The position numbers and the translations under genes are program-made. Positions 2,437 through 55,445 of a DNA stretch of 64,000 bases are shown here, piece by piece; positions within the stretch are counted from its first letter, which is position 1, and every line of letters starts with the position of its first letter. Origin of the DNA: Candidatus Kaiserbacteria bacterium (lineage in GTDB: Bacteria; Patescibacteriota; Minisyncoccia; Phycocordibacterales; UBA918); contig JANPCG010000015.1 in assembly GCA_031430855.1 (NCBI GenBank), forward strand, positions 641 to 64,640, written 5' to 3'. A model generated the notes under the pieces. That model saw nothing but the letters and a program-made list of their open reading frames with translations, had not been told where the DNA came from and did no database searches.

Positions 2437-4236
2437 CTACAGCTGAGTGCCCTCTAGTTCACGCCTCGCGTTTTTTATCTGGAGGATTTGTGACGGGTCA
2501 GAGGTGATAATCTGATCCTCGGTATAGGACGCAATGACTTTAATTGCCACGTGTTTTAACCCTACAAAGAATAATCCTTCCCCCACATCGGATTCGAGCA
2601 ATAAGAATTTTTCTTCATCCGTAAGGTTGAAGGTACGTTGAATGTTATCAATCGCGGTTGGTGATTGTTTCATGAGAAATTGAAGAGAAGAGTTGGTAAT
2701 CATTGGTACGCCATAGGGGGAACGAAGAAAGTCATCCACATCTTGGGTAATGGTCGCAATCCCTAAAAAGTACTTCCGTCCTCGTTTAGCGAGACTGAAT
2801 AAAAACGATGCGGTATCTTCTGATTTCATCATCCACCACGCCTCATCAATCACCAGGAGTCGTTTAACGAGACGGCGCCTGATGGCAGACCAAATATAAT
2901 TAGTCACAATAAACATCCCAATAGTTTTGAGTTCATCTTCCATATCGCGCAGTGAAAACACCACAAATTTTTGATTTATATCAACGTTTGTTGGGTGGTT
3001 CATAAACCCAGACCAGGTTCCCGAGGTATATTTCTGTAGCCGACTGATGAGTGACCCACTCCCATTCATACCTGCCAACACCATTTCAAAATCGGATAAC
3101 AAAGGCGGCTCGAGCTCGCTAAAATTACTTTGTTCGGTAATGTCTTTTAGTGCGTAGGTCTCGCGAATTGCTTGATCGACGATCGTTTCCTCTTCGGGAC
3201 TGAGTCCGCCTAACATCAGTCGGAACAACCCAATGAGGTGCACGATTTGTGAGCGAAGGATGTCAGCCGGCTCCTCGTCTTCCCCAGGGGCTGGTAAATC
3301 AAACGGGTTAATGTGGTGTTTTGACGAAAGCGAAATATTAAAGAAACGTCCACCGGTTGCTTCAGCTAGGTATTCATATTCGCGCTCAGGGTCGATCACT
3401 ATCACTTCTGTTCCAAACATTAGGGACCGTAGAATTTCCAACTTAATACTGTATGACTTACCGGCACCAGAGGTCGCAAAGGTAACCGAGTTGTAGTTCG
3501 TGAGACCAAATCGATCAAATAGTACCAAAGATGAGTTGTGGCGGTTAATGCCGTAGAGGATTCCGGTGTCTGAGGTGAGGTCAAATGAGGTAAAGGGAAA
3601 AAAGCTCGAAAGGGGTGAAGAATTAAATTTACTATGGACCATTAATTCATCAGTACCGGTTGGAAAAATACTTCGTACCCCTTGTTCTTGCTGAAACAAA
3701 GCCGGTTTAATATAAATTAACTTAGAGTCAAGTGAACCTTTGATGTCATTTTCGACCTTATTCAAGGCTGTTTCGGTGTCACCATAGACGGCAATATAAA
3801 GCCCTACATCAAATAACTTTTCCTCAGCCTGTTGAAGTTTGTCACGCAGCTCTTCGAGATTGCGGTAGGCTGCTTCGAGCTGCGGGTCACGCACTTCCCC
3901 ACGATTGGCACGGATGTTAATTTGACTCTGTACCTCGGCTACTTTTTTTTGGAATTTTTTTAGGGTTTCTGCCGTACTGATAGGGTGAATTACAATCGTG
4001 ACATCAAGTTCCTTCTCGAGGTTAAGAATTGGTTCAAGCCACCCATCATTTAAATAGCGCGGGTAGGACACTGCGTAGAACACACGAGCTTGCGTTCCGC
4101 TAATGTTAATACTCCGGGGATTGATATTAATTGCTGACGGTGCAATCACATCAGTCAAGGTCAAGAGACTTTCACTAATCGCGTCCTGGCTCGGAGTTGT
4201 TTTAGGTTTAGGTTTTAAGTTGTCGAATAATCCCAT
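2437..4236 (-). CDS. VirB4/TraC/PrgJ-family type IV secretion / conjugation ATPase (C-terminal ATPase portion or complete short form)
   Basis: Walker A FATSGAGKSYS, Walker B VIDEAWWMM (DEAW) and a downstream ITQD motif. The N-terminus has a YPRYL-type motif seen in Gram-positive VirB4 proteins. Confidence 0.8.
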   Translation of the reverse strand: MGLFDNLKPKPKTTPSQDAISESLLTLTDVIAPSAININPRSINISGTQARVFYAVSYPRYLNDGWLEPILNLEKELDVTIVIHPISTAETLKKFQKKVAEVQSQINIRANRGEVRDPQLEAAYRNLEELRDKLQQAEEKLFDVGLYIAVYGDTETALNKVENDIKGSLDSKLIYIKPALFQQEQGVRSIFPTGTDELMVHSKFNSSPLSSFFPFTSFDLTSDTGILYGINRHNSSLVLFDRFGLTNYNSVTFATSGAGKSYSIKLEILRSLMFGTEVIVIDPEREYEYLAEATGGRFFNISLSSKHHINPFDLPAPGEDEEPADILRSQIVHLIGLFRLMLGGLSPEEETIVDQAIRETYALKDITEQSNFSELEPPLLSDFEMVLAGMNGSGSLISRLQKYTSGTWSGFMNHPTNVDINQKFVVFSLRDMEDELKTIGMFIVTNYIWSAIRRRLVKRLLVIDEAWWMMKSEDTASFLFSLAKRGRKYFLGIATITQDVDDFLRSPYGVPMITNSSLQFLMKQSPTAIDNIQRTFNLTDEEKFLLLESDVGEGLFFVGLKHVAIKVIASYTEDQIITSDPSQILQIKNARRELEGTQL

Positions 4237-4242
4237 GTTGTT

Positions 4243-4872
4243 CTATTGTATCGTAGGTGCGCTCCCGGTGATATCACCCGGATTGTATATGTGGTAAAAG
4301 AGTTCAACTAATTCATCGGTCTGGAGTGCAATCGTGCGGACTCCGATTCGGTTGAGTCCCTGTTCAACAATTGCTTGGCGTTGCTCGAGCTGGAGGCGCT
4401 GCTCTTCGATGGTCATATCATTTTGGATACTCATGCGGCCTTGAGAAATGATACTCCCAAAGCTTTTCGTGAGGTTTACCTTGGCGGCTGTGTAGGGAAC
4501 CACAACAAAAAAGTTTTTACTCATCACATCCACATCAGCCACAAAAGAGCGAATAAACTCAATGTATTCACGCAGCTGGATTCGCATTAAGTCGTTATCT
4601 TGATCGACGTTTCGCTCGTTAAGCATCGCTAAATACGGCTCAATATTAAGACGTCTTGATTGGACGTAAATCTGCAGTGAGAAATCAAGCGTGTTGAGGA
4701 AGTTTTGAAACTGAAACAGAATGGCTCGTTGTTCATCTTGAGATTTGAGCGCAAAGTTAACCGAAGAAGCTAAAAGAATCTTGCACAACTGACCACTTTT
4801 CAGTATGACAATATCATCGCGAATATCACGAATGGCAACAAATTCTTGGGTGGCTGCATTAGGGGTTGGCAT
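4243..4872 (-). CDS. VirB4 N-terminal-domain-like ORF. It is in frame with the downstream ATPase and separated only by TAG plus two codons.
   Basis: 209 aa, hydrophilic. The architecture (IRDIRDDIVILKSGQL...) resembles VirB4 N-domains. The stop TAG at 4243-4245 is in frame with the ATG at 4236. Confidence 0.45.
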   Translation of the reverse strand: MPTPNAATQEFVAIRDIRDDIVILKSGQLCKILLASSVNFALKSQDEQRAILFQFQNFLNTLDFSLQIYVQSRRLNIEPYLAMLNERNVDQDNDLMRIQLREYIEFIRSFVADVDVMSKNFFVVVPYTAAKVNLTKSFGSIISQGRMSIQNDMTIEEQRLQLEQRQAIVEQGLNRIGVRTIALQTDELVELFYHIYNPGDITGSAPTIQ

Positions 4873-4875
4873 AGA

Positions 4876-5307
4876 TTATTTTTTTTGAAGAGCTTGCAAT
4901 TCGAGACGCCTGGCGAGCGAGGTGATATCTTTTTTTGGACTACTCGCGGCGGGTATATAGCCAGGATTACGAATGGTTGTCGTGGGTAAGAAGCTTTGCT
5001 TGTGAATTATTTCTCGTTGTTGCTGCCAGAGATAGAGACGGTGTCGCCTAAAGTAATTATAAATAGCTTCTATAAAGTACGAAAAAGGTCGATTGTTGAT
5101 AGGGTAAAAAGAGAGCGCTCCCGCGAGAATTCCAAGTGGCAATCCAATGAGTATAAACACAATAAACGGAGCGGTGAGAAACAGTACGACCGCCATTCCG
5201 GCTCCCCCACCGAGATAGAGAAATTGCCGCCAAGTAAACGGGCCAAAAATTTTATCTTCAATTTCGATGAACTGCGGCACTTCAAATTGCATACCCGTAT
5301 TATACAC
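4876..5307 (-). CDS. PrgI/VirB3-like small membrane protein of conjugation systems
   Basis: 143 aa with two N-terminal TM helices (FTWRQFLYLGGGAGMAVVLFLTAPFIVFILIGLPLGIL). Sits directly upstream of VirB4, as in Gram-positive T4SS loci. Confidence 0.5.
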   Translation of the reverse strand: MYNTGMQFEVPQFIEIEDKIFGPFTWRQFLYLGGGAGMAVVLFLTAPFIVFILIGLPLGILAGALSFYPINNRPFSYFIEAIYNYFRRHRLYLWQQQREIIHKQSFLPTTTIRNPGYIPAASSPKKDITSLARRLELQALQKK

Positions 5308-5356: not shown

Positions 5357-6037
5357 TTAGGCGCCCCAGCGTGGTGTTTCAATTGATGTCGCAGGCGGTG
5401 TCGTTGGTTTGGCGTCAGGGGTAGAGGTGTATGCCGGCAGGTCAGAGAGTGGGGTGCGCACTGGCGGTTGCTCCGAGGTATAGACCGGTGTTTCAACGTC
5501 AGCGATTGGTTCATAACTGGTTCGCTCTGGTGACCGCGCCATATCACTCGCCATAGTACGGATTTCAGGCATATGCGGTACTTCTTCAGTCGGAATGGGT
5601 GTAGCGCCGGTGACGGGAATACTCACGCTTGATGGTGGAATATAGAAGGTTGCACTAGAATGAGTGCTGGGGGCAGGTATAGGTGTAGACACTATGGTTT
5701 CTTCGGTTTCCGCATCTTCCTCTTCTGGTACAACAAAAGTTGGGTCAGAGAGTGGCGCCAAGAACTCGAGCACATCTGCCCCTAGTAATCCCGCGGTCGT
5801 CGCGTCTAGCCCAAGCTCTTGTTGGAGGAGTGGGACGGTGTCTTCAGTTCGGTAGAAGCCGAGGATGATGTCCCCCAGAGTTAATATTAAATCTACGTAT
5901 ATTTTTTCAAGGTGGTATTTTGTACTCATCATGATGCTAAGCTCAACAAGTCTTTTGTTGTAAAAGAACTGAATTTTTTCTGAAGACTGTTCGAGCACCT
6001 GTAGTCTTGAGTTGTGAGTTGTGTAGTTATGGTCCAT
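5357..6037 (-). CDS. Hypothetical protein with a Pro/Thr-rich C-terminal tail
   Basis: 226 aa ORF. Low-complexity PT-rich end. Overlaps the upstream gene by 11 nt. Confidence 0.4.
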   Translation of the reverse strand: MDHNYTTHNSRLQVLEQSSEKIQFFYNKRLVELSIMMSTKYHLEKIYVDLILTLGDIILGFYRTEDTVPLLQQELGLDATTAGLLGADVLEFLAPLSDPTFVVPEEEDAETEETIVSTPIPAPSTHSSATFYIPPSSVSIPVTGATPIPTEEVPHMPEIRTMASDMARSPERTSYEPIADVETPVYTSEQPPVRTPLSDLPAYTSTPDAKPTTPPATSIETPRWGA

Positions 6038-8327
6038 ATTTCTTTTTTCCTTCTTCGCTTCTGAAGTACGCTAATACACCTGGCTGAATTCCCCACCGAG
6101 CTGCATTAAATTCAAACACCTGACGAAGTTGAAATCGCTGCGCTTGATCAAGCGTCCCTTCTTTTGCGATTTCTTCAAGTATACCAGAGGATATTTTTGG
6201 ATATGCGGAAGAGTATGAAGCGTCGAGGAAAACCTCTTTCGGTAGTTGGATAAATTCCTTAGGCTTTTTGGCAAGCTCTGTAAGTATTGCGTCCGCACCA
6301 CCTCCAGGACTCTGAATAAGATCCAATATACGAGATTTCTTGTTTTGTTTAATTGAGTCATTAAGTTCAGGGGTGGTTTTCTTAGAATTCTTTGTCCAGT
6401 CATCCAACTGAGTAGCTGATAGTAAATGGCTGTTGGTGGATACCCATTCAACCCCAAGTGTGTCGAGCTCGTCTCGTGTGAGCTTTGAGGTTTTGCTTGG
6501 TGAAGGGGTTGCAATGCCTCCAATTTTATTACCAACGGCAGTTTTTCTTGCGCCAGCAATACCACCCTTTTCACTGGAAGAGATCTTTTCGCTGTCCATT
6601 AGTTTTGAGGTTTGATCAGTAGTAAAGGAAGAAGCGTATTTTGCTCGTGTTTTAGAATCAAGATCTTCGATATCACTTTTTGAAAGACCTGTAATGTATT
6701 GTTTGGCTTTAGCCTCTTCTCCCTCCAGTGATACGAGTTTACTTCTATCGTCTGCTGACATACCAGCGTATGTTGCTGGATTAGCGGCAAGAGAACGGAG
6801 ACGTTCCAATTCAGGTCGATTTTTATCGGTATCTTTGACTGCAGCCCGGCCTTTCTTGGTGTCCTTAATTCCCTGCATTCTTGAACGGTTTTTTGTTACG
6901 TCAGCCTTTTCTGATTCGATTTCACTACGTGTTTTAGCTAGACCGGTTCCGCCGGCGCCGTACTCGTAACCAGACTTAAGTCCGTTACGTAAAGATCGAG
7001 TTCCCGGCAAATTTGACATGCCAGTTCGGTCCATTATGTTCAGACCAAGCTTTGATGCTCTTCCGCCTGTGTTTCTGTAGAGAACACCTTGGGTATTTTT
7101 ACGCAACGTATTTCCCATCGAAATTGCCGTTGAGGCACCAACTGCTCCCATACTACGCGCAACAGACAGTGACATAACCAAGAACACCATTGCCATAATA
7201 AAGAACGGCAAAACAGCCAGCGCACTCTGACTGGTCGCCGGGTCGGGAGAAAACATCGCGGCGTAACTTTGTGCCCCTGGGCGAGTACTGTAGGCGTAAA
7301 GGACGCGGAACGAAAGGTACAACATCAGTAAATAGGCAGGAGCAAAAAATGCTTGTTTAAGAAATCCAGTCCAAAACTTACTCGAAGTCCCGGAGAAGGC
7401 AGGAAACACCCACCCGAGGAACATAACCGGTGAAAACACCATATAGACATTAAGCGCAATAAATCGAATGATAAGTAAGATACCCCCTGCAGCAAACACA
7501 AAAGTGGCAGTTGCAAGGAATATCATTAAACCGAATATATACGCTAATGCCCCACCATTCCCAAATGCCGTTATCTGGCCTTGAGAAATCTCGAGGGTTG
7601 TCTCAAGGTTAAGAATGTTTATGAAGGCATTTGCAATGTCACCGCGCGCTTCACCAAAACCGTCAGCGATTACCGATGATGCCACGTGGGAGAGATCAAT
7701 GATAAATTTGGTAATAAAAAGACTAAAATTTACCAAGAGGGCCGCTCCGATTAAAGACACGAGCATGCTGCGTGCGCGTGAGTCACTCGAATCAAGAATC
7801 ATCTTAAAGCCTATGTATACTAACCCAAAGATAAAGGTGAGGTTAAAGAGGTCTCGAATGATTCGCCACACTTCTTCTACTGCAAAGCCAATCCCGTCAT
7901 TGTAGTAGCGGTCACCAAACCCGAGAAGGAAAGAATTAATACCAAATGTCATCAAATATCCAGCAAAGGAAAAGAGTGTTGTAAACACTGAGTAGACGAA
8001 TTCATAGAGCCATTGGTAGAGTGGGTTGGCAAACTGAACGGTTGGTACTTCAGTGGTTTGGGTCTGAGTTTCTTCGGGTGCAGCCGCGCCCCCGCCAGTA
8101 GTGCCGCCGCCATAGGTGCCAGTTACGGGGTCATATGTTGGAGCAAAGCCGGGTCGGTTAAATTGATCAGAATAGAAACCGCGATCAATAGGGTCTGTCA
8201 CTACCGGCGGTCTCGGACCAAGGTCTCCGGCGTAAGCAGTTTGACTTATAAGAAGAAATCCAAACAGTAACAAACTACCGATCAGTATCGCTATAAAGCT
8301 CTGCATTTTTGTTACCTGTCTAATCAT
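6027..8327 (-). CDS. Large polytopic membrane protein, putative VirB6/TrbL-like T4SS channel component with a hydrophilic Lys-rich C-terminal domain
   Basis: 766 aa. Signal/TM at the N-terminus, a Gly-rich linker, at least six predicted TM helices, then about 350 aa of hydrophilic tail. Position in the cluster fits. Confidence 0.4.
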   Translation of the reverse strand: MIRQVTKMQSFIAILIGSLLLFGFLLISQTAYAGDLGPRPPVVTDPIDRGFYSDQFNRPGFAPTYDPVTGTYGGGTTGGGAAAPEETQTQTTEVPTVQFANPLYQWLYEFVYSVFTTLFSFAGYLMTFGINSFLLGFGDRYYNDGIGFAVEEVWRIIRDLFNLTFIFGLVYIGFKMILDSSDSRARSMLVSLIGAALLVNFSLFITKFIIDLSHVASSVIADGFGEARGDIANAFINILNLETTLEISQGQITAFGNGGALAYIFGLMIFLATATFVFAAGGILLIIRFIALNVYMVFSPVMFLGWVFPAFSGTSSKFWTGFLKQAFFAPAYLLMLYLSFRVLYAYSTRPGAQSYAAMFSPDPATSQSALAVLPFFIMAMVFLVMSLSVARSMGAVGASTAISMGNTLRKNTQGVLYRNTGGRASKLGLNIMDRTGMSNLPGTRSLRNGLKSGYEYGAGGTGLAKTRSEIESEKADVTKNRSRMQGIKDTKKGRAAVKDTDKNRPELERLRSLAANPATYAGMSADDRSKLVSLEGEEAKAKQYITGLSKSDIEDLDSKTRAKYASSFTTDQTSKLMDSEKISSSEKGGIAGARKTAVGNKIGGIATPSPSKTSKLTRDELDTLGVEWVSTNSHLLSATQLDDWTKNSKKTTPELNDSIKQNKKSRILDLIQSPGGGADAILTELAKKPKEFIQLPKEVFLDASYSSAYPKISSGILEEIAKEGTLDQAQRFQLRQVFEFNAARWGIQPGVLAYFRSEEGKKKYGP

Positions 8328-10849: not shown

Positions 10850-11764
10850 TTAGATGATTGGTTGGGGAAAACGTTGGGGATAGGTGGAGAGGTCTTTAAA
10901 AAGAATCAACCATTTTTCTAAAGGCACTACTTCAGCCCGTACATCAAGCAGTAGATTATTTTTTTGAAAAAGGTCTTGCAGGTACCTTCGATCGTATTGA
11001 TGACTTAGGTTAGAGAGTAATTGTTTCCGTTTTTGTCCAAAGCCGAGGTGTAAAAGGTTGAAAAATATAGCCATTTCGTCTAAATCAGTAAAATGTGTTC
11101 GATTGATGTGGCTAACCTGGAGAATGGCTGAGTCAACCTTTGGGACCGGATTAAAGTGTCCTCGACCAACCGTTTTAAGGTACCGGGGTATTCCAAAAAC
11201 TTTTACCGATAAAGAAAGGAGTGATTCTTTAGGGTCGCGAGCGATTCGCTCCACGACTTCTTTTTGCATTAAAAATACTAGTGTTGTTGGTTGAACTGGT
11301 CCTTCTAAGAGGGTACGCAAAAGATATCCAGAGAGGTAGTACGGAATGTTAGCCACTACTTTAAAGGAGTGGTCGACTAATCCTAGGATGGACATATTCA
11401 GTTCGCGGGCATCCCCGTGGTGAAGCATGAGTTTGGATGATGCAATTTCTTCCGTAAATTCAGTCTCTAATATAGTAATTACCCGCACATCAGCTTCGAC
11501 CGCAATCACTCGCGCGCCTGTTGCTAAAAGGGCTCGGGTGAGTGCACCGGTACCGGGGCCAATTTCTAGTATGGTATCGTCCGCCGTAACCTCTCCTGCG
11601 GCCACGAGCCACCCAGGGACAATAGCACTCGTGAGGAAGTTTTGTCCAAGAGACTTTTTATGTTGAAATCGTTCAGTTGACTCATTGGTGTCAGACTGCC
11701 TTCCTGCTCTGTGTCGTGGCTTCATGCATCGAGCATACCTATATATGTATGTGGGCGCAAGCAA
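10850..11764 (-). CDS. rsmA: 16S rRNA (adenine1518/1519-N6)-dimethyltransferase RsmA/KsgA. True start may be internal (MKPRH...).
   Basis: SLGQNFL and GPGTGALT SAM-binding motifs. Confidence 0.85.
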   Translation of the reverse strand: MLAPTYIYRYARCMKPRHRAGRQSDTNESTERFQHKKSLGQNFLTSAIVPGWLVAAGEVTADDTILEIGPGTGALTRALLATGARVIAVEADVRVITILETEFTEEIASSKLMLHHGDARELNMSILGLVDHSFKVVANIPYYLSGYLLRTLLEGPVQPTTLVFLMQKEVVERIARDPKESLLSLSVKVFGIPRYLKTVGRGHFNPVPKVDSAILQVSHINRTHFTDLDEMAIFFNLLHLGFGQKRKQLLSNLSHQYDRRYLQDLFQKNNLLLDVRAEVVPLEKWLILFKDLSTYPQRFPQPII

Positions 11765-13967: not shown

Positions 13968-15083
13968 ATGGTTGTACTGCGGCGTGTCCATAACTCATTT
14001 CATATTCAACCTCAATCAAAAAATTCTGACGTAACCTATACTAAGAGTCCTCTGCGACAGAACCCATATACGGCAACCCACTATACGCTTGAGCTAGTTT
14101 TATTAGTGCTTGCTATTGTTGTTCCGTTCTCTGTGCAGGCCGGTGTTTTTCAAAATATCATGAGTAATGATAGAGGTGAGGTTGTTGTAGAAACAGCTCT
14201 TCTGTCTGATTTACCAGTTGATGCTCCCGTTTTGGTAGCGGCGGCAAATCCTGATCCAAACAATGCTCGTGGTGGGGCTGAGGTAACTGCCCAAGATGGT
14301 GTCCTCATTTCTACCGGTCCCGTTGGTAAAGATATAATTTCAGCTGCCCGAAGTAATAGTGGAGAGATTAGTGTCTACACCGTACGACCAGGTGATTCCC
14401 TTTCGCAAATTGCTGAAATGTTTGATGTTACCTCTAACACTATCCTCTGGGCTAATGACCTCCCCCGCGCCTCAGCGATTAAGCCCGGCGATGCACTCGT
14501 AATCTTGCCTGTTGCGGGAGTGCGGCATGTTGTTCGCTCGGGTGATTCGATTGCGGTTATTGCAAAAAAATACGAAGGCAATGCTGAAGAAATCATTTCC
14601 TATAATCAGCTTGATAACGAAAGTGATTTACGTGTCGGTGAGACCTTGGTGATTCCGGGAGGAGCGATTCATACCTCGCCCGTAAAAGCTCAGTCGAAAG
14701 CTGCACCAACCAAGTCATCAGGTTCAGTCGGAGGAGCGATTGGTTCCTTTATAAATCCGGTGCCAGGCGCTATCAAGACCCAAGGACTTCATGGCTACAA
14801 CGCCGTAGATTTTGGTGGAGCGATTGGCAGTCCTATTAGAGCTGCGCAGAGTGGAGTGGTCCTGGTGGCCAAAAGTGGTGGTTGGAATGGCGGGTATGGA
14901 AACTATATCGTTATCAAACATAAGAACGGTACGCAGACACTCTACGCACACCTTTCTCGAGTTGATGTAGGCGTGGGAGCTACGGTCGCTCAGGGTACTA
15001 CTATCGGCGCTCTCGGAAATACGGGCAAGTCGACGGGGCCACATCTACACTTTGAAGTTCGAGGCGGAAAGAATCCATTTTAG
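13968..15083 (+). CDS. LysM-domain M23 family metallopeptidase (peptidoglycan hydrolase)
   Basis: LysM repeats (YTVRPGDSLSQIA, HVVRSGDSIAVIA) and an M23 HxH motif (GPHLHFEV). Confidence 0.85.
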   Translation: MVVLRRVHNSFHIQPQSKNSDVTYTKSPLRQNPYTATHYTLELVLLVLAIVVPFSVQAGVFQNIMSNDRGEVVVETALLSDLPVDAPVLVAAANPDPNNARGGAEVTAQDGVLISTGPVGKDIISAARSNSGEISVYTVRPGDSLSQIAEMFDVTSNTILWANDLPRASAIKPGDALVILPVAGVRHVVRSGDSIAVIAKKYEGNAEEIISYNQLDNESDLRVGETLVIPGGAIHTSPVKAQSKAAPTKSSGSVGGAIGSFINPVPGAIKTQGLHGYNAVDFGGAIGSPIRAAQSGVVLVAKSGGWNGGYGNYIVIKHKNGTQTLYAHLSRVDVGVGATVAQGTTIGALGNTGKSTGPHLHFEVRGGKNPF

Positions 15084-24321: not shown

Positions 24322-26739
24322 TTACCTCTTTATATCACTTAGTCCGAGTGTAATTACGTCCCCGCTTTTGATAGTTCCTGAAATAATACGTGAAGCGATA
24401 GCATCTTCAATCGTGTCTTGAATCACCCGTCCCATAGCGCGAGCACCAAATTGTTCATCATAACCCGCTTCTGATATATGAGAAATTAGTTCCGGTTCAA
24501 TTTCCAAGGTGTAGCCTTCCTTGGCTACACGTGCAGTGAGGTCACGGAGTAAGAGAGCGGCAATTTTTTCTTGTTCAGGGCGTGTGAGCGATTCAAAAAT
24601 TATTGTGTTATCAAACCGATTAATTAATTCCGGTCTAAAAATTCCGGCTTTAATAATTCCGGCAATAATTTCAATCTCGAGAGCTGGTGCTGCTCCTCGA
24701 TTATTTTTGGTTCGGGCAATCAGATCACTTCCTGCGTTACTGGTAGCAATCAGTATTGTGTTGCGTACATTAACGCGCTCTCCTCGGTGGCTGGTGAAAA
24801 AACCCTCGTCAAGAATTTGGAGAAACAAGTCATGAACCATCTGATGTGCTTTTTCAAACTCATCAAACAGAACAACGGCATACGGATGTTCATGAAACGC
24901 ATCAGTCAGTACCCCGCTGTTTTGGTCGTCACCAATCAGATGTGCGAGAGCTGTTTCATTGCTATATTCAGACATGTCAAATCGAACAAGGGCCGTCTCA
25001 TCACCAAAAAATACATACGCAAGCGCTTTCGCTGTTTCTGTCTTTCCAACACCCGTTGGTCCGAGAAAGAGAAATGAACCAATTGGTTTATCTGCTCGTT
25101 CAATCGAGACGCGAGCGCGGCGCATGGTTTTTGCTAACGCCGTAATGGCTGCACCTTGTCCAACGATGCGGGTGTGTAACACGTCTTCAAGGTGGAGTAA
25201 CTGATCACGTTCGGTGTCAGTGACAGGGCCGGTTGGGATTCCCGTCTTGTCCCCCAAGAGCTGGCCCACATACGTTTCAGTAATAGTTTTTGTGTTGCTT
25301 CGTGCTCCTATTTCTGCTACCTCTGATAAAAATTGAATTGCACGTTCAGGCATGTCGCCTACGGTAAGGTACCGCTCAGAGCCGCTCGCGATTTTTGCTA
25401 TTGCTGCGTAGGTAAATCGAATACCATAGTAGGCTTCCTTTTTAATCACCAATGGTTCAAGGATAGTGATGGTTTCCTCGACACTGGCTGGTTCAATCAA
25501 GATTTCTTCGAATCTTCTAATAAAGAGCGCATTATTTTCCAAGTGTTGGTGATAAGTGTCAGGCGAGTCGGTCGCCAAAAGGTGAAGTGTCGGAAGGGTC
25601 AAATAAGAATCCAATAAGGTGGTCATATCTACTCCTCGGGCTTTGGTTGCTAAGAGGACCTGGCTCAGGTTAGGAATAATAATTGCATGGTTCCCCGCTC
25701 GTGCAGCCCCACTGAGTATCCGATGGAGCATTAATTCAAATTGGGTGGCTTCGGGGAGTTTTGCCATTAGTCGTTCAATATCAAGAACACTAAAATGGAG
25801 TGACCGAAGCGCATTTAATCCACCACCTCGCGTTATTTTTTTAGCAGCGTGCGCAATAATTCCTAAAGTACCTACCCCTGGGTTGCCAATAAGGAGTACG
25901 TTGGCTGCTCGACTGCGGGCCAAAGCAACTTCAATTTTTTCAATAGCAGCTTTTTGTTCAGTTGAGGTACCTCCCGTTTCAGTGTCCGCAGGTAACCGAG
26001 AAAGTGGCTTTGAAAATTCTTGTAGTTCGTATGGAATACCCTCGGATAACGCACTACCAAGTGCGCCGAGTCGTGACAGCTGATCTCTTCCCCACCAGCG
26101 CTGCTTTCGTACACTATGTTCGTGTGTCTTGGTAACAAAGCGGGTCGTGGCGAGAAACATTGTTTCATCGCAGCCAGCCTGGGTGCATACTGTGCGAAAA
26201 CCAGAATCATATATATATATGTATGTTGCAATATCTACAACGGTAGTCATTCGCTCGGACTGCAGTGGGACTTCGGTAGCCGCTAATTTCATACGGGCAG
26301 CAGTGAGGTAGGCACTGATTGCTTCGGGAGTAATTTCGCAACGCTCAATTATTTCTTTACCCATAGCGGTTCCCCAAAAACCACTCACGATATCACTTTT
26401 ATTCGAGAGGAGAATCAAGGCCGCTCTGTAGGTTAGTCCGGTGTAGATTTTATTAGCGCTGTTTCTAATTGAATCAAATCCGCGAAAATAAAAACTATTA
26501 TGGTAACAATATAAAAGAACCTGCTCTAGCCAGAGCCCAAAAAACAATAATGAAATTCCAAACCAGAGCGGGAGCGGTAGTGCTAATGAAAATATAAACG
26601 TTGCTAAAAATGTCGTGATAGAAATTAAAAATACACAGAAAAATACGATGCGGAGTCTCTGCATCACGCTACGGGGGAGAATACGACTGAGTCTGATAAT
26701 GGGTTCGAAGCTCTGCAATTCTGAGTTAATAGTTTTCAT
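24322..26739 (-). CDS. Membrane-anchored Clp/Hsp100-family AAA+ ATPase. NBD1 has lost both its Walker A lysine and its Walker B acidic pair; NBD2 is intact.
   Basis: Likely ATG at 26739 with an ATGA overlap on the upstream gene. Two N-terminal TM helices. NBD1 reads GNPGVGTLGIIAHAA (no Lys) and its Walker B reads IIIPNLS. NBD2 has GPTGVGKTETAKALA and VVLFDEFEKAH. Confidence 0.75.
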   Translation of the reverse strand: MKTINSELQSFEPIIRLSRILPRSVMQRLRIVFFCVFLISITTFLATFIFSLALPLPLWFGISLLFFGLWLEQVLLYCYHNSFYFRGFDSIRNSANKIYTGLTYRAALILLSNKSDIVSGFWGTAMGKEIIERCEITPEAISAYLTAARMKLAATEVPLQSERMTTVVDIATYIYIYDSGFRTVCTQAGCDETMFLATTRFVTKTHEHSVRKQRWWGRDQLSRLGALGSALSEGIPYELQEFSKPLSRLPADTETGGTSTEQKAAIEKIEVALARSRAANVLLIGNPGVGTLGIIAHAAKKITRGGGLNALRSLHFSVLDIERLMAKLPEATQFELMLHRILSGAARAGNHAIIIPNLSQVLLATKARGVDMTTLLDSYLTLPTLHLLATDSPDTYHQHLENNALFIRRFEEILIEPASVEETITILEPLVIKKEAYYGIRFTYAAIAKIASGSERYLTVGDMPERAIQFLSEVAEIGARSNTKTITETYVGQLLGDKTGIPTGPVTDTERDQLLHLEDVLHTRIVGQGAAITALAKTMRRARVSIERADKPIGSFLFLGPTGVGKTETAKALAYVFFGDETALVRFDMSEYSNETALAHLIGDDQNSGVLTDAFHEHPYAVVLFDEFEKAHQMVHDLFLQILDEGFFTSHRGERVNVRNTILIATSNAGSDLIARTKNNRGAAPALEIEIIAGIIKAGIFRPELINRFDNTIIFESLTRPEQEKIAALLLRDLTARVAKEGYTLEIEPELISHISEAGYDEQFGARAMGRVIQDTIEDAIASRIISGTIKSGDVITLGLSDIKR

Positions 26740-27134
26740 AGTAGTGATGTAATGCAGATATATCCACCACTCACGAGAGCACCAAAAGACACAATCGGAG
26801 CAATCAGCCAAAAAGCATACCCAGTGAGACTTACAAACGTAAGTAGAGATAGGGTTGTGACACCACAGAGTAAAAGGCTGGCTCGAATACATGCGCCAAG
26901 AATACGAGAGAGTGTATTGATAATAAACGCGCTTGACCAGGCAGCAATATCAAATATACGACTCGGCGGTTCGGTGATTCGGCGAAAGGGAGAAAAAAGA
27001 GTCCTGACTAATGTCGACATAGAGAAAAACTCCGTCACGAACCAGGCGAGGTTTCGATAAATCCGCACGTACAGTACTAACGCGTACCCATAGTGCCACA
27101 ACAGATAATGTTGAAGAACACTTACGAAGAACAT
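26736..27134 (-). CDS. Small polytopic membrane protein, translationally coupled to the Clp-like ATPase
   Basis: 132 aa with four hydrophobic helices. Its stop overlaps the downstream ATG (ATGA). Confidence 0.5.
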   Translation of the reverse strand: MFFVSVLQHYLLWHYGYALVLYVRIYRNLAWFVTEFFSMSTLVRTLFSPFRRITEPPSRIFDIAAWSSAFIINTLSRILGACIRASLLLCGVTTLSLLTFVSLTGYAFWLIAPIVSFGALVSGGYICITSLL

Positions 27135-27249
27135 AATGTGTGGTATTAGTATACCGCATCAACATGCCAGAAATTATAGTTTCGTGGATACATATATACA
27201 AAAACAACCTGCGGCTTGCCGCAGGTTGTTTTTGTTCTACGTGAGTAGA

Positions 27250-27450
27250 TTATGCACGACGTACGTTAGTAGCCGCTGGTCCTTTTGGACCGTCTTCGAG
27301 ATCAAAAGTGATTTTGTCACCTTCGTTAAGCTCATCGTAGATGTTATCAACTACTGATTGTGCGTGGAAGAAAACATCCTTTCCGCCATCATCTGGAGTG
27401 ATGAAGCCGTATCCGTTATCTTTCTTCATTCGTGCGATTGTTCCTGTCAT
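27250..27450 (-). CDS. cspA: Cold-shock protein CspA family
   Basis: GTIARMKKDNGYGFI and VFFHAQS RNP motifs. Confidence 0.9.
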   Translation of the reverse strand: MTGTIARMKKDNGYGFITPDDGGKDVFFHAQSVVDNIYDELNEGDKITFDLEDGPKGPAATNVRRA

Positions 27451-27588
27451 TTTGTTTGGTTTATTTTATTAACACAAAACTTCACTACGCCTGACCACTC
27501 GTTACCTTGCTTTGAGGGAGTTATTGTTTCGCTAGTAGTATTAAAGCACATTCATAAAAAAGCACAAGCAAATTCCCCGCTCAAGCGA

Positions 27589-27855
27589 CTAAAGTTTTTC
27601 TATCTCCTTTAAATCATGGTCTGGCAAATACAGAATCAAAAAACCCATCACAATACAGATTACCCCAATTAACCAGTTCGTAGCGTCGCCGAAGAACATA
27701 ATACTCACGGTGTCGATTAAGGCCCAAATACCACGCCAAATCAGTACAATCCCAACAATTATCCCAAAATTCTTTACAAAATAACGTAACGTATGATGAG
27801 CGTGTGAATGGGATAGATTCATATATAAGCAGCGTACCATAAAAATACCATTCAA
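27589..27855 (-). CDS. Small membrane protein, hypothetical
   Basis: 88 aa ORF with two hydrophobic helices. Confidence 0.3.
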   Translation of the reverse strand: MNGIFMVRCLYMNLSHSHAHHTLRYFVKNFGIIVGIVLIWRGIWALIDTVSIMFFGDATNWLIGVICIVMGFLILYLPDHDLKEIEKL

Positions 27856-27901
27856 TCTGATGATTCTTCAACACCTGTACCCTACATGCTAGTATAAAGG
27901 A

Positions 27902-28699
27902 ATGAAAATTTACTCCTGGAACGTTAACGGTATCCGAGCGGTTCACAAAAAGGGTGATTTACAACGTTTCTTGAATACCCATGCACCTGACATTCTTTGC
28001 CTTCAGGAAACCAAAGCACATCGTGAACAGACCGACATCGATATGGGGGAGTATGAGGAATATTGGTGTTCAGCAGATAAAAAGGGCTATTCTGGGACGG
28101 CAATTTTCACTAAAATAAGCCCAGAAGAGGTGTTCTACGGTTTACCGGAGCATATTATGACAAAATATGCCTTGCTAGATGGTTATGGTGACACTACTAA
28201 AGAAGGTCGTGTAACCACCCTAGAATTTGAAAACTTCTTTGTTTCAACCGTATATACCCCGAATGCCAAGGATGATCTGTCTCGAATTCCCATGCGTCAG
28301 GCCTGGGACCCAGCCTACCTTGAATACATGCAGGAACTTGAGACGGTGAAACCGGTGATTTTTTGTGGTGATTTTAACGTGGCACACACAGAAATCGATT
28401 TAGCGCGTCCTAAGGAAAATAGTGGTAAGAAAGGTTTTACCGCAGAAGAAAGATTAGGTTTTGATGCCATGATACAGGCGGGGTTTGTTGATACACTCCG
28501 ACATCTTTATCCCACTGAGTCAGGTCTCTACACCTGGTGGTCACATTTCGGGGGAGCGCGTGAACGTAATGTTGGCTGGCGGATTGATTACGTTATGACA
28601 TCAGAAAGTCTTGTCCCGTTAGTCACCCACGCCCGGATTCATCCTGAGGTATTTGGGTCAGATCATTGCCCAGTTTCTATTGAAATATTGTTGGGTTAA
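27902..28699 (+). CDS. xthA: Exodeoxyribonuclease III (AP endonuclease)
   Basis: MKIYSWNVNGIRA N-terminus; EEP-fold motifs; 265 aa. Confidence 0.9.
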   Translation: MKIYSWNVNGIRAVHKKGDLQRFLNTHAPDILCLQETKAHREQTDIDMGEYEEYWCSADKKGYSGTAIFTKISPEEVFYGLPEHIMTKYALLDGYGDTTKEGRVTTLEFENFFVSTVYTPNAKDDLSRIPMRQAWDPAYLEYMQELETVKPVIFCGDFNVAHTEIDLARPKENSGKKGFTAEERLGFDAMIQAGFVDTLRHLYPTESGLYTWWSHFGGARERNVGWRIDYVMTSESLVPLVTHARIHPEVFGSDHCPVSIEILLG

Positions 28700-33402: not shown

Positions 33403-33816
33403 ATGGAACAAAAAGAGAAGTTAAAACTTAAAACTAAAGAAACTGGGAATAAAGGAGAGTTAATTTGTGCCCGGTACCTTAAAAGTGAGGGATTTACTCT
33501 AATTGCAATGAATTATCAAAAAAAGTGGGGTGAAATTGATGTTATTGTGCAAAAAGCCAATAAAATTCACTTTGTTGAAGTAAAAACAGTTTCATATGAA
33601 ACGAAGGACGATCTTGATTATGCAGTTGCACATGGAACGTGGCGGCCAGAAGATAATGTTCATCAAAATAAATTAATTAAACTATCTCGAGTAATTCAGA
33701 CCTGGATTATCGAACACAAGTGGTCTGGCGACTTTCAAATTGACGTTGCGGCGATAAGAATTGTACCACGTGAAACGTATGCACGTATTAATATCATTGA
33801 AAATATTATTCTGTAA
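33403..33816 (+). CDS. yraN: YraN-family (UPF0102) endonuclease-like protein
   Basis: GELICARYLKSEGFTLIAMNYQKKWGEIDVI core. The start codon sits inside a GTTCCATATGGAAC palindrome. Confidence 0.7.
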   Translation: MEQKEKLKLKTKETGNKGELICARYLKSEGFTLIAMNYQKKWGEIDVIVQKANKIHFVEVKTVSYETKDDLDYAVAHGTWRPEDNVHQNKLIKLSRVIQTWIIEHKWSGDFQIDVAAIRIVPRETYARINIIENIIL

Positions 33817-33877: not shown

Positions 33878-34266
33878 ATGAAATTTCTCGTTACAGGAAG
33901 ATCAACTAGAATCCCTGAAGTGATTGATGTTATGGAAAGGATAAAACACCTAGGATATAAGATTAGCTTTGACTGGCCAGTACTTCCAATGGTAAAGCCA
34001 TATGAAGATAATCAAGAAAAAGCTGCGTAATTCGCAGAATCGGCAATTAATGGGATTATATCGGCAGACGTTTATGTTTTGTTTGCCCATGGAGATGGAG
34101 CCGGTGTTTTTGCAGAATTAGGTGCTGCTCTAGGTGTTGCGCAGTTACATGGGAAACTGAAAATTTATTCTTTTTCAAACTCAATTCCTCCTGCTATATT
34201 CCACTAACACCCTTAATTTGCTGGGTTAACAGTCTTGATGAAGTGTTTATTGATTTAGTTAAGTAA
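33878..34266 (+). pseudogene. Nucleoside 2-deoxyribosyltransferase-like gene disrupted by an in-frame TAA and a -1 frameshift
   Basis: MKFLVTGRST...ISADVYVLFAHGDGAGVFAELGAAL...ICWVNSLDEVFIDLVK is recovered only by joining three frames. Confidence 0.5.
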
Positions 34267-34320: not shown

Positions 34321-34328
34321 TCTTATTG

Positions 34329-34399
34329 TCGGGGAGCAGGGAATCGAACCCTGACCATCCGGTCCCAAACCGGATACACTACCACTATGCTACACCCCG
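34329..34399 (-). tRNA. tRNA-Pro(TGG), no encoded CCA; C1-G72 as in bacterial tRNA-Pro; one T-T mismatch in the acceptor stem
   Basis: T-arm CAGGG-TTCGATT-CCCTG; anticodon stem TCCGG/CCGGA with loop TTTGGGA. Confidence 0.8.
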
Positions 34400-52200: not shown

Positions 52201-52461
52201 ATATGTATTGTGAGGTATTCCTCTTAGTTGTAAATAATCCTTAAATTCATCACTTTTTGGACAAAGAACGCGCGGGCAAGCGCCCGCGCGGAAGTCATAT
52301 ATACTATAGCTTCCTTTTGTGTGATTGTCAAAATGATAAATCAAACGACATACTGAATTATTTTTTGTGTTTGCAAACAGTCAAAACAAAAATCTGACGG
52401 AAACGTTTGCTATACTATAAGTACGACAAGTTCTTTTGTTCGTTAATTTTTGGAGCATCAC

Positions 52462-54213
52462 ATGCGTATTGCTGATGATCAGTTAAAGCGATTTATTCTT
52501 GATTCCAACCTTGTAACCAAGGCTGATATTGCTGCTGCCGAGAAAGTCTCCAAGGACGAAAAACGAACATTAAGCGAAGCCTTGATTGCCGGAGGTCTTA
52601 TGACCGAAGATGACATGCGGCGAGTAGAGTCATATATTCTTGGGATTCCGTTTGTGTCACTCAAAGACATTAAGATTGATTTTGAAATCCTCTCGCTGAT
52701 TCCTGAGCCGGTTGCGCGGACACATAATATTATAGCGTTTAAGAAAAACGAGTTTACGCTCGAGGTAGCCATGCTTGATACCGCAGATTTACCGGCTATA
52801 GATTTCATTAAAAAAAAGGTAGGATTAAAAATCTTACCCCGCTTGACGGATACCGACTCAATGCGCGGGGCCTTGCGCCAGTATCAAAAAACCCTCAAGG
52901 ATGAATTTGGTGACATTATTATGCGTGACGCCAGCTCACTTAAAGTGGTAAGTGACGCAAATGGTGAAGAGATGTCAGAGGCTGATCTAAAGAAAATGGC
53001 AGAAGATTTGCCCGTGGTACGAATTGTCGACACCCTCCTCCGACATGCCATCATTCAAGGCGCCTCAGATATTCATATTGAACCAATGGAAGAAGAAGTG
53101 TTAGTGCGGTACCGTATCGACGGTATCTTAAATGACGCCATGAAATTGCCAAAGATTGCGGCGGGTACTATTGTCGCTCGTCTTAAGGTGCTCTCTAACC
53201 TTAAACTTGACCAAAAACGACTTCCGCAAGACGGTAGATTTAAAATGGAAATGGATGGACAAAAAGTAGCCTTTCGCGTGTCGATGCTCCCAGTTTATTA
53301 TGGAGAAAAGGTGGTCATGCGTTTATTGCGAGAAAACCGCAGCGGCTTTTCGCTCGAAGGAATTGGTTTTCATGGGAGTACGCTCGAGCGTATTCACAAA
53401 GCAACGCGAGCAACGACCGGTATCATTTTGGTAACAGGTCCAACGGGGTCAGGAAAATCAACCACGCTTTATACGGTGCTTGATCTCTTAAATACGCCGG
53501 AAGTAAATATCTCAACCGTAGAAGATCCGATTGAATATCAGATGGCCCGTGTTAATCAAACACAAGTGAAGCCTGATATTGGTTTTACGTTTGCGGCTGG
53601 CCTAAGGTCTTTGATGCGTCAAGATCCCGACATTATTATGGTGGGAGAAATTCGCGATCAAGAAACGGCCAGTCTGGCTATCAATGCAGCCTTAACCGGA
53701 CACCTGGTCTTAGCTACTGTGCACACCAATTCCTCGTCGGGTACCATTGCCCGTTTAATTGATATGGGGGTTGAATCATTTCTCTTGGTATCAACCCTGC
53801 GGGTTGCGATTGGTCAGCGTCTCGTCCGAAAATTAGCTGATGACAAAATCGCGTACACTCTTACGAAAGCAGAGCGTGACGAACTAGCACTTCATGCCAA
53901 CCTCGATTTTGTATTAGAAACACTCAAAGAAGAAAAAATTGTGAAAGATGACGCGACATGGAATGATATCCCGTTCTATCATCCCAAAGAAAAGGGAGTG
54001 ACCGAAGATGGATATCATGGTCGAATGGGAATTCATGAAGTCTTGGAAATGTCAGCGACCATTAAAAATATGGTAATGAGTAGAGAGACGGGTGATGCGC
54101 TTGAAGCACAGGCGCGCAAGGAAGGGATGCTTACGATGATGGAAGACGGAATTTACAAAGCCGCCAAGGGACTGACGAGTATTGAAGAGGTGCTTCGAGT
54201 CATTAGTGAATAA
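52462..54213 (+). CDS. pilB: Type IV pilus assembly ATPase PilB/GspE family
   Basis: Walker A GPTGSGKSTT; Asp and His boxes; tetracysteine-less variant. Confidence 0.9.
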   Translation: MRIADDQLKRFILDSNLVTKADIAAAEKVSKDEKRTLSEALIAGGLMTEDDMRRVESYILGIPFVSLKDIKIDFEILSLIPEPVARTHNIIAFKKNEFTLEVAMLDTADLPAIDFIKKKVGLKILPRLTDTDSMRGALRQYQKTLKDEFGDIIMRDASSLKVVSDANGEEMSEADLKKMAEDLPVVRIVDTLLRHAIIQGASDIHIEPMEEEVLVRYRIDGILNDAMKLPKIAAGTIVARLKVLSNLKLDQKRLPQDGRFKMEMDGQKVAFRVSMLPVYYGEKVVMRLLRENRSGFSLEGIGFHGSTLERIHKATRATTGIILVTGPTGSGKSTTLYTVLDLLNTPEVNISTVEDPIEYQMARVNQTQVKPDIGFTFAAGLRSLMRQDPDIIMVGEIRDQETASLAINAALTGHLVLATVHTNSSSGTIARLIDMGVESFLLVSTLRVAIGQRLVRKLADDKIAYTLTKAERDELALHANLDFVLETLKEEKIVKDDATWNDIPFYHPKEKGVTEDGYHGRMGIHEVLEMSATIKNMVMSRETGDALEAQARKEGMLTMMEDGIYKAAKGLTSIEEVLRVISE

Positions 54214-54218
54214 ATCCT

Positions 54219-55445
54219 ATGCCAACATTTACCTATCAGGGAGAGGATTCAGAAGGAAAAAAGGTTACTGAGACAGTAACGGCTGATGATCGGTATGCGG
54301 TGTATGACATTGCCCGGACAAATGGACATACGGTTTCGGGAATAGAAGAGCGGACAGGGATCAAACTCAAGCGCTTGTTTGACATGGAGGCTATTAATGC
54401 TCGGTTGGGACGGGTAAAACAAGACGAGCTCGTCATGGTGACACGAAATCTCGGTTCTATGTTGGTAGCGGGGCTCACTATTACAAGGGCACTCTCGGTT
54501 ATCGAACGTCAAACCACCAATGCGAAGCTTAAGGACGTGGTTCGAAAAATTATTGCACGTATTAACAAAGGTGATCAGTTTAATGAAGGCCTCAAGGATC
54601 ATCCAAAAGTTTTTTCTGATTTATATATTGCAATGGTTCGCGCTGGGGAAGAGAGTGGTAATTTAGCCCAGTCTCTCCAGACGTTAGCGATTCAAATGGA
54701 ACGAGCATCAAATCTCAAGAAGAAAATAAAAGGTGCCATGATGTACCCGTCAATCGTAATTATTGTTATGTGCATCATTGCAGTTTTAATGATGATATTT
54801 GTGATGCCAGCGATTACCGGAGTGTTTGAAGGGATGGGTAAAGATCTGCCAGCCACCACGAAAGCGTTGATTGCGGCAACCAACTTTTTTGCGAACTATA
54901 CCCTCATCGCTGTTGGGGGTATCCTTGCGTTTGTTGTTTCTATCATTTGGGTCCTAGGTACCAAGATTGGGAAACGCTGTACCTCATGGATTGTCACGCG
55001 GCTACCCGTTATCGGTACTCTCGCCAAAGAAATGAACTCTGCCCGTACCGCACGGACACTCTCATCACTCTTGGATTCTGGAGTTGATGTAATGCAGTCA
55101 TTATCGATAACCGAAGAAGTGGTGCAAAATTTCTACTACAAAAAAATTTTACAAACAGCTCGCGAGCGAGTAGAGAAGGGGACGGCGCTCTCAGAATCTT
55201 TTATTGAGCGGTCAGATTTATATCCCGTTCTCGTCGGGGAAATGATTTTGGTAGGAGAGGAAACTGGTCAAATTTCAGGCATGCTTGGTGAATTAGCGAT
55301 TTTTTATGAGACTGAAGTTGAGCGTAAGACCAAGGATCTCTCTACTATTATTGAGCCAATACTAATGGTGGTAATAGGTGCAGGAGTTGGTTTCTTTGCG
55401 CTCGCCCTCATTGCTCCAATTTATTCAATCTCAGATGGTCTCTAG
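54219..55445 (+). CDS. pilC: Type IV pilus platform protein PilC/GspF
   Basis: Two GspF repeats, three TM helices, 408 aa. Confidence 0.9.
   Translation: MPTFTYQGEDSEGKKVTETVTADDRYAVYDIARTNGHTVSGIEERTGIKLKRLFDMEAINARLGRVKQDELVMVTRNLGSMLVAGLTITRALSVIERQTTNAKLKDVVRKIIARINKGDQFNEGLKDHPKVFSDLYIAMVRAGEESGNLAQSLQTLAIQMERASNLKKKIKGAMMYPSIVIIVMCIIAVLMMIFVMPAITGVFEGMGKDLPATTKALIAATNFFANYTLIAVGGILAFVVSIIWVLGTKIGKRCTSWIVTRLPVIGTLAKEMNSARTARTLSSLLDSGVDVMQSLSITEEVVQNFYYKKILQTARERVEKGTALSESFIERSDLYPVLVGEMILVGEETGQISGMLGELAIFYETEVERKTKDLSTIIEPILMVVIGAGVGFFALALIAPIYSISDGL

Follow-up and report, generated by a model that had tools for sequence, protein, structure and literature searches.

In R388, the N-terminal domain of VirB4 anchors the ATPase to VirB3 and VirB8 at the membrane (7O41/8RTB structures). 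Among the Patescibacteria, homologues of TrsD have been described as the most abundant T4SS component, with 2,272 found in total, of which 1,664 are associated with and adjoin virB4, and they show remote homology to the N-terminus of VirB4 (Quinonero-Coronel et al. 2025, Microb Genom, PMC12102498). The T4SS clusters concerned usually occur without a relaxase, and the same work states for TrsD that “no function has been assigned”, without treating it explicitly as half of a split VirB4 (PMC12102498). In Ca. Southlakia epibionticum ML1, the T4SS is reported to be essential for epibiotic growth (PMC12102498), and the TrsD homologue is itself listed as essential (Wang et al. 2023, cited in PMC12102498). 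The staphylococcal pSK41 (NC_005024) likewise encodes trsD (25886-26569, 227 aa) as a gene of its own, followed after a 14-nt spacer by a VirB4-like ATPase (26584-28602, 672 aa).

Here, we investigated a locus at which a VirB4-like reading frame appears to be interrupted by a single stop codon. It lies in a window of 64,000 nucleotides, by which we mean the whole stretch of DNA that was analysed. The ORF list places a 209-aa ORF at 4243..4872 and a 599-aa ORF at 2437..4236, both on the minus strand, and the minus strand across their junction reads ...ACG ATA CAA TAG AAC AAC ATG GGA TTA TTC.... This comprises the TAG stop of the 209-aa ORF (4245-4243), an intergenic spacer of 6 nt that separates the trsD-like stop from the start of virB4 (AACAAC, 4237..4242) and the ATG of the 599-aa ORF (4236-4234). 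When 4872..2437 is translated in a single frame, 812 codons with one internal stop are obtained, and the translation at the break is ...GDITGSAPTIQ, stop, NNMGLFDNLKPK.... The original prediction had given the coordinates, the lengths and the shared frame of both ORFs correctly, as judged from the sequence and the ORF list. Its proposals that both ORFs are related to VirB4, and that they jointly make up a full-length VirB4, were borne out by matches to a single 752-position VirB4 model of the CD1110 family, which the 209-aa ORF covers at positions 2-169 and the 599-aa ORF at positions 166-733. The whole of this model was not found on one polypeptide in the window; its coverage is divided over the two ORFs.

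Such a locus can be broken, misread or naturally split. We favor, with a probability of about 0.93, two intact genes, a trsD-like gene and a short virB4, that belong to a chromosomal monoderm-type (MPF-FATA-like) T4SS cluster of the Patescibacteria (Kaiserbacteria/Paceibacteria group). The figure applies to the two-gene reading as a whole, in which the 209-aa protein would be a separate chain that supplies the first ~200 residues, half of the VirB4 N-terminal domain. The layout trsD-virB4 in two genes is normal in Patescibacteria and has already been described.

The identity of the downstream gene (virB4, 2437..4236, minus strand) follows from NCBIfam, Pfam and PDB matches. With 375.3 bits (E 6e-112), the 599-aa ORF clears the curated threshold of 325 bits for NCBIfam NF045971 (CD1110-family VirB4-like conjugal transfer ATPase). 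It also matches Pfam P-loop_TraG (E 1.3e-25), the solved C-terminal domain of VirB4 in PDB 4ag5 (E 3.2e-39) and residues 446-735 of TrwK. Both nucleotide-binding motifs are intact, with Walker A (ATSGAGKS) at 3477-3454 on the minus strand (residues 254-261 of the ORF) and Walker B (LLVIDEAWW) at 2859-2833 (residues 460-468). What this ATPase lacks are the first ~170-200 residues that are present in fused VirB4 proteins.

The upstream gene (4243..4872, minus strand) is called trsD-like from its NCBIfam matches and the gene order. The 209-aa protein matches NCBIfam NF041427 (TrsD/TraD) with 27 bits (E 3.5e-6), which does not reach the curated cut-off of 200, in a collinear and full-length alignment of protein residues 9-197 with profile positions 16-200 of 201. 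On this profile match, it is a distant relative of TrsD that stands outside the narrow-sense family of NCBIfam. A direct comparison by hhalign of its family (alignment A1) with TrsD of pSK41 gave no significant match (E 0.028, probability 1.8%). The link to TrsD is drawn from the NCBIfam HMM (E 3.5e-6), from the order of the genes and from the ATPase starting at an equivalent residue. For Pfam, the local scan of the 209-aa ORF returned no family with the E-value limit raised to 10, and the precomputed database annotation of the protein gives PF26593 (TraC-like), a discrepancy that presumably reflects different Pfam versions.

Could the 209-aa protein be an unrelated accessory protein, encoded upstream of a naturally short VirB4, instead of the detached N-terminal subdomain? 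Its similarity to VirB4 N-termini is indeed weak (E 1e-8 to 3.5e-5, far below the family cut-offs), with E 3.5e-5 for positions 2-169 of the CD1110 model and E 1.4e-8 for the Mbov_0397 VirB4 model in its N-terminal part. Searches of PDB sequences with the 209-aa protein, either as a single sequence or as a profile, gave no VirB4 and only matches at chance level. Structure prediction with AlphaFold from the shallow 22-sequence alignment A1 yielded an unusable model (pLDDT 52.5), and when it was repeated with the 89-sequence alignment A2, a pLDDT of 87.7 was reached and the best match of the predicted fold was TrwK/VirB4. That TrsD is a detached piece of VirB4, namely its N-terminal domain in the first half, is indicated by this predicted fold, by the tiling of one VirB4 model and by a rare fused homologue, and we regard an unrelated accessory protein as quite improbable.

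The fused homologue, P0137, is a protein of 797 aa that is collinear with both ORFs of the window and 47% identical over the N-terminal part. At its junction (...RQG-MG-G...), the Met-Gly of the downstream start is retained. Its Pfam TraC_F_IV match extends over residues 169-394, across the junction, and the break in the window thus lies inside what is elsewhere one domain; likewise, the division point in the window falls inside the region modelled by Pfam as the TraC/VirB4 N-terminal domain. P0137 occurs on one contig of a single MAG (GCA_964615945.1), in the same prgI-virB4 context and adjoining dnaA, and may have arisen either by a secondary fusion or by faulty assembly; with it, a fused form is at least conceivable.

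Evidence for two genes comes from the boundary itself. The best 120 database homologues of the 209-aa protein (100 to 69% identity) all have a length of 206-212 aa and share the C-terminus ...GDxTGSAPTIQ. When 1.84 billion cluster representatives were searched exhaustively by HMMER, 2,150 relatives were recovered, and among the best 150 of these (down to 34% identity), 149 are short stand-alone proteins (112-445 aa) and one is fused. Homologues of the window proteins were found in MAGs of Kaiserbacteria, Paceibacteria and Parcubacteria. We further surveyed the junction in 80 species-level genomes of Kaiserbacteria, Paceibacteria, Nomurabacteria, Parcubacteria and other Patescibacteria. The trsD-like gene is located directly upstream of the VirB4-like ATPase in all 80 orthologous loci, and the boundary at which the upstream ORF ends is common to all of them, the stop codon being TAA in 66 loci and TAG in 14. 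The spacer between stop and ATG measures 1-19 nt in 72 of the loci and 42-82 nt in the other 8. On the downstream side, the ATPase alignment reaches window residue 1 in 77/80 orthologues, among which the N-terminus MG(L/I)(F/L)D is common, and of the 75 ATPase ORFs that are complete, 71 have a length of 595-607 aa. By this comparison, a conserved upstream gene has its normal stop at 4245-4243 (TAG), and the genuinely split VirB4 that the original prediction had listed as one of its options is the one upheld by the conserved boundary.

A programmed read-through of the TAG, or its reassignment, could still give a full-length VirB4 of ~810 aa instead of or beside the two proteins. The junction in the window is in frame, the spacer codons AAC AAC would be readable, and with P0137 a fused homologue exists elsewhere. 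Adjacent genes on the same strand are expected to share a frame one time in three, and frame offsets of 0, 1 and 2 between both genes occur in 23, 28 and 29 of the 80 loci (chi-square p = 0.68). Since no frame is preferred, the in-frame junction of the window is a coincidence. The potential for read-through is not conserved, as 57/80 junctions are out of frame, 66/80 orthologues use TAA and additional stops occur in 7 of the 23 spacers that are in frame. Moreover, TAG is an ordinary stop here because it terminates 16 of the 42 window genes examined, on which ground its reassignment was rejected. Read-through, also raised in the original prediction, is therefore unsupported, and we consider it highly improbable that this junction is translated in that way.

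The original prediction leaned towards gene decay, that is, a recent nonsense mutation that split a former single virB4 and left the T4SS pseudogenised, and by its own criterion this reading would fall, in favor of a natural split, if the orthologues regularly code for two separate proteins divided at one and the same place. Exactly such a split was found in 80/80 genomes and in the best 120 homologues, all of which show the stop at the same position, and gene decay is thereby refuted. The case for decay consisted of the shared frame of the ORFs, with only one stop and two sense codons between them, and of another possible small pseudogene at 33878-34266, which has no bearing on the VirB4 locus. 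The 57/80 out-of-frame junctions, the intact ATPase motifs and the conserved downstream ATG with its MG(L/I)(F/L)D N-terminus all argue against it, as does the strong purifying selection on both halves. When the window genes were compared with orthologues whose counterpart of the 209-aa protein is 72-85% identical to it in amino acids, dN amounted to 0.12-0.23 in the small gene and to 0.07-0.13 in that of the ATPase, far below dS, with synonymous sites saturated. The dN/dS ratios of 0.025-0.064 come from only three computable comparisons, all other pairs being dS-saturated. These values indicate that both genes are under strong purifying selection, and a recent nonsense mutation is hardly credible.

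A sequencing or assembly error that made a sense codon into TAG, another option in the original prediction, has nothing specific in its favor beyond the source being probably a metagenome-assembled genome, a kind that contains errors, and is so very unlikely as to be negligible given that the identical 209-aa protein, stop included, is present on 16 contigs, that the identical TAG-AACAAC-ATG junction was found at four places in four samples (two ENA, one NCBI and one Logan) and that diverged relatives have the same boundary.

The two intact genes are embedded in a compact cluster on the minus strand. A gene for a PrgI/VirB3-like small membrane protein (4876..5307; Pfam PrgI, E 6.4e-10) ends 3 nt upstream of the trsD-like start and was also called in four other assemblies. 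Further upstream lies a gene for a 226-aa protein (5357..6037) that had no match in local Pfam or NCBIfam scans and to which no family is assigned; it is found in the same position at four near-identical places in other samples, and it overlaps by 11 nt a gene for a 766-aa protein (6027..8327). The latter protein also had no match in the local Pfam or NCBIfam scans and is possibly, and only tentatively, VirB6/TrbL-like on a faint precomputed TrbL_3 match. Downstream of virB4, two genes without an assigned family follow, one for 245 aa (1684-2421) after a gap of 15 nt and one for 332 aa (672-1670) after a further 13 nt. The housekeeping neighbours of the cluster include rsmA, a UvrD-type helicase, PNPase, NusA, trigger factor, RNase Y and RecJ. 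Neither a relaxase nor a VirD4/TraG-type coupling protein was detected by Pfam among the 30 window proteins scanned, a set that does not take in all of the smaller ORFs. Elsewhere in the window, a possible small pseudogene is located at 33878-34266.

From the gene order and the gaps of 3, 6, 15 and 13 nt, the prgI-like gene, the trsD-like gene, virB4 and the next genes would be co-transcribed. Translation of the trsD-like gene and virB4 may be coupled, as their spacing suggests, or otherwise independent of Shine-Dalgarno sites, from which the genome appears to be largely free. No Shine-Dalgarno site was found upstream of virB4, which is uninformative since the motif occurs in only 3 of 42 window genes. 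The TrsD-like protein would then dock non-covalently onto the 599-aa ATPase, which would itself consist of the rest of the N-terminal domain and the RecA-like ATPase domain, and so rebuild a complete VirB4 N-terminal domain. One may speculate further that the split is functionally meaningful, with the TrsD-like protein as a dissociable half that controls the assembly or stoichiometry of ATPase anchoring to PrgI/VirB3, and that a trace read-through isoform is additionally made here, although we think this rather unlikely. The use of the present result lies mainly in annotation: a VirB4 N-terminus, a stop and a VirB4 ATPase in the same frame tempt the human or automatic reader to call a pseudogene and a decaying T4SS.

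In comparison with the T4SS clusters described from Patescibacteria (PMC12102498), the window shows no essential difference and represents one more instance: a stand-alone TrsD homologue is encoded directly upstream of virB4 with a PrgI/VirB3-like gene alongside, and the locus is chromosomal, in housekeeping surroundings, with no relaxase or coupling protein nearby. What the present analysis adds to the literature is small: TrsD is indicated to be the N-terminal domain's first half, detached from the rest of VirB4.

With respect to the single-chain VirB4 proteins (the CD1110 family of CTn2, TrwK of R388 and TraC of F), domain content and domain order are the same in the window, its ATPase domain is homologous and the fold predicted for the 209-aa protein matches that of TrwK. 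Whereas these proteins consist of one polypeptide of ~750-870 aa, the window has two chains, with the division after roughly position 169 of the CD1110 model. The gene arrangement itself is that of pGO1/pSK41 (TrsD/TraD and TrsE/TraE; MPF-FATA, pGO1 subclass), in which a small gene (in the trsC position), trsD, a short spacer and the ATPase follow one another. As a conjugative plasmid, pSK41 carries a relaxase and a VirD4-like coupling protein, neither of which is encoded near the window locus, which is chromosomal. The TrsD parts of both systems are marginally similar in sequence (27 bits with the family HMM; E 0.028 with hhalign). The ATPases align from residues 7-567 in the window to residues 6-617 in pSK41 (E 4e-35), from which it follows that the polypeptide boundary is equivalent in the two, so that VirB4 is broken at the same point in the staphylococcal plasmid pSK41 and in the Patescibacteria.

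Among the 150 best representatives matched by the 209-aa trsD-like protein, a fused trsD-virB4 gene occurs only once, in locus L086 (GCA_964615945.1, CAZTUR010000004.1), where positions 544-2937 encode a 797-aa homologue. This fused gene lies on a single contig; its neighbours dnaA, dnaN, and rnpA place it at the replication origin. It could be either a true secondary fusion or an assembly error. Across the 80 species genomes in which the trsD-virB4 junction was compared, trsD ends in TAA in 66 and in TAG in 14, and TGA is used in 0/80; within the window itself TGA stops are uncommon (2 of 42 genes). Two of these relatives carry a short virB4 ORF 3′ of trsD, of 111 aa at 4644-4977 in locus L028 and of 80 aa at 4677-4917 in locus L042, which could stem from local frameshifting, from misassembly, or from true gene decay in the two MAGs concerned.

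The original prediction of virB4 decay had also invoked a second, deoxyribosyltransferase-like pseudogene at 33878-34266 (+), adjoining a tRNA-Pro gene (34328-34399). A 50-aa ORF there ends at a TAA (34028-34030) beyond which 58 further codons stay open in the same frame. The match of the joined product to Pfam Nuc_deoxyrib_tr, which crosses this stop, is weak and below the cut-off (E 0.0087, 16.6 bits, cut-off 28.8). The region may be a small pseudogene, and it is irrelevant to virB4.

Gene starts were surveyed for upstream motifs (e.g., at 33403 +, 42859 −, 43378 −, 40033 −, and 31082 −). Of the 42 window genes, only 3 carry a Shine-Dalgarno-like sequence between −18 and −6, and a TATAAT/TATACT-like hexamer lies 6–12 nt before the ATG of many, which suggests that leaderless mRNAs are widespread.

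At 52450-55445 (+), a separate secretion or pilus cluster starts with a type IV pilus/T2SS-type assembly ATPase, which matches T2SSE at E 7e-119 and also has an MshEN domain. Roughly 2 kb past position 11764, where the run of T4SS genes has its upstream limit, a gene at 13968-15083 (+) encodes a protein with LysM and Peptidase_M23 domains. Its product may be the cell-wall hydrolase of the window's T4SS, because VirB1-like hydrolases with LysM and Peptidase_M23 domains accompany virB4 in Paceibacteria (PMC12102498).
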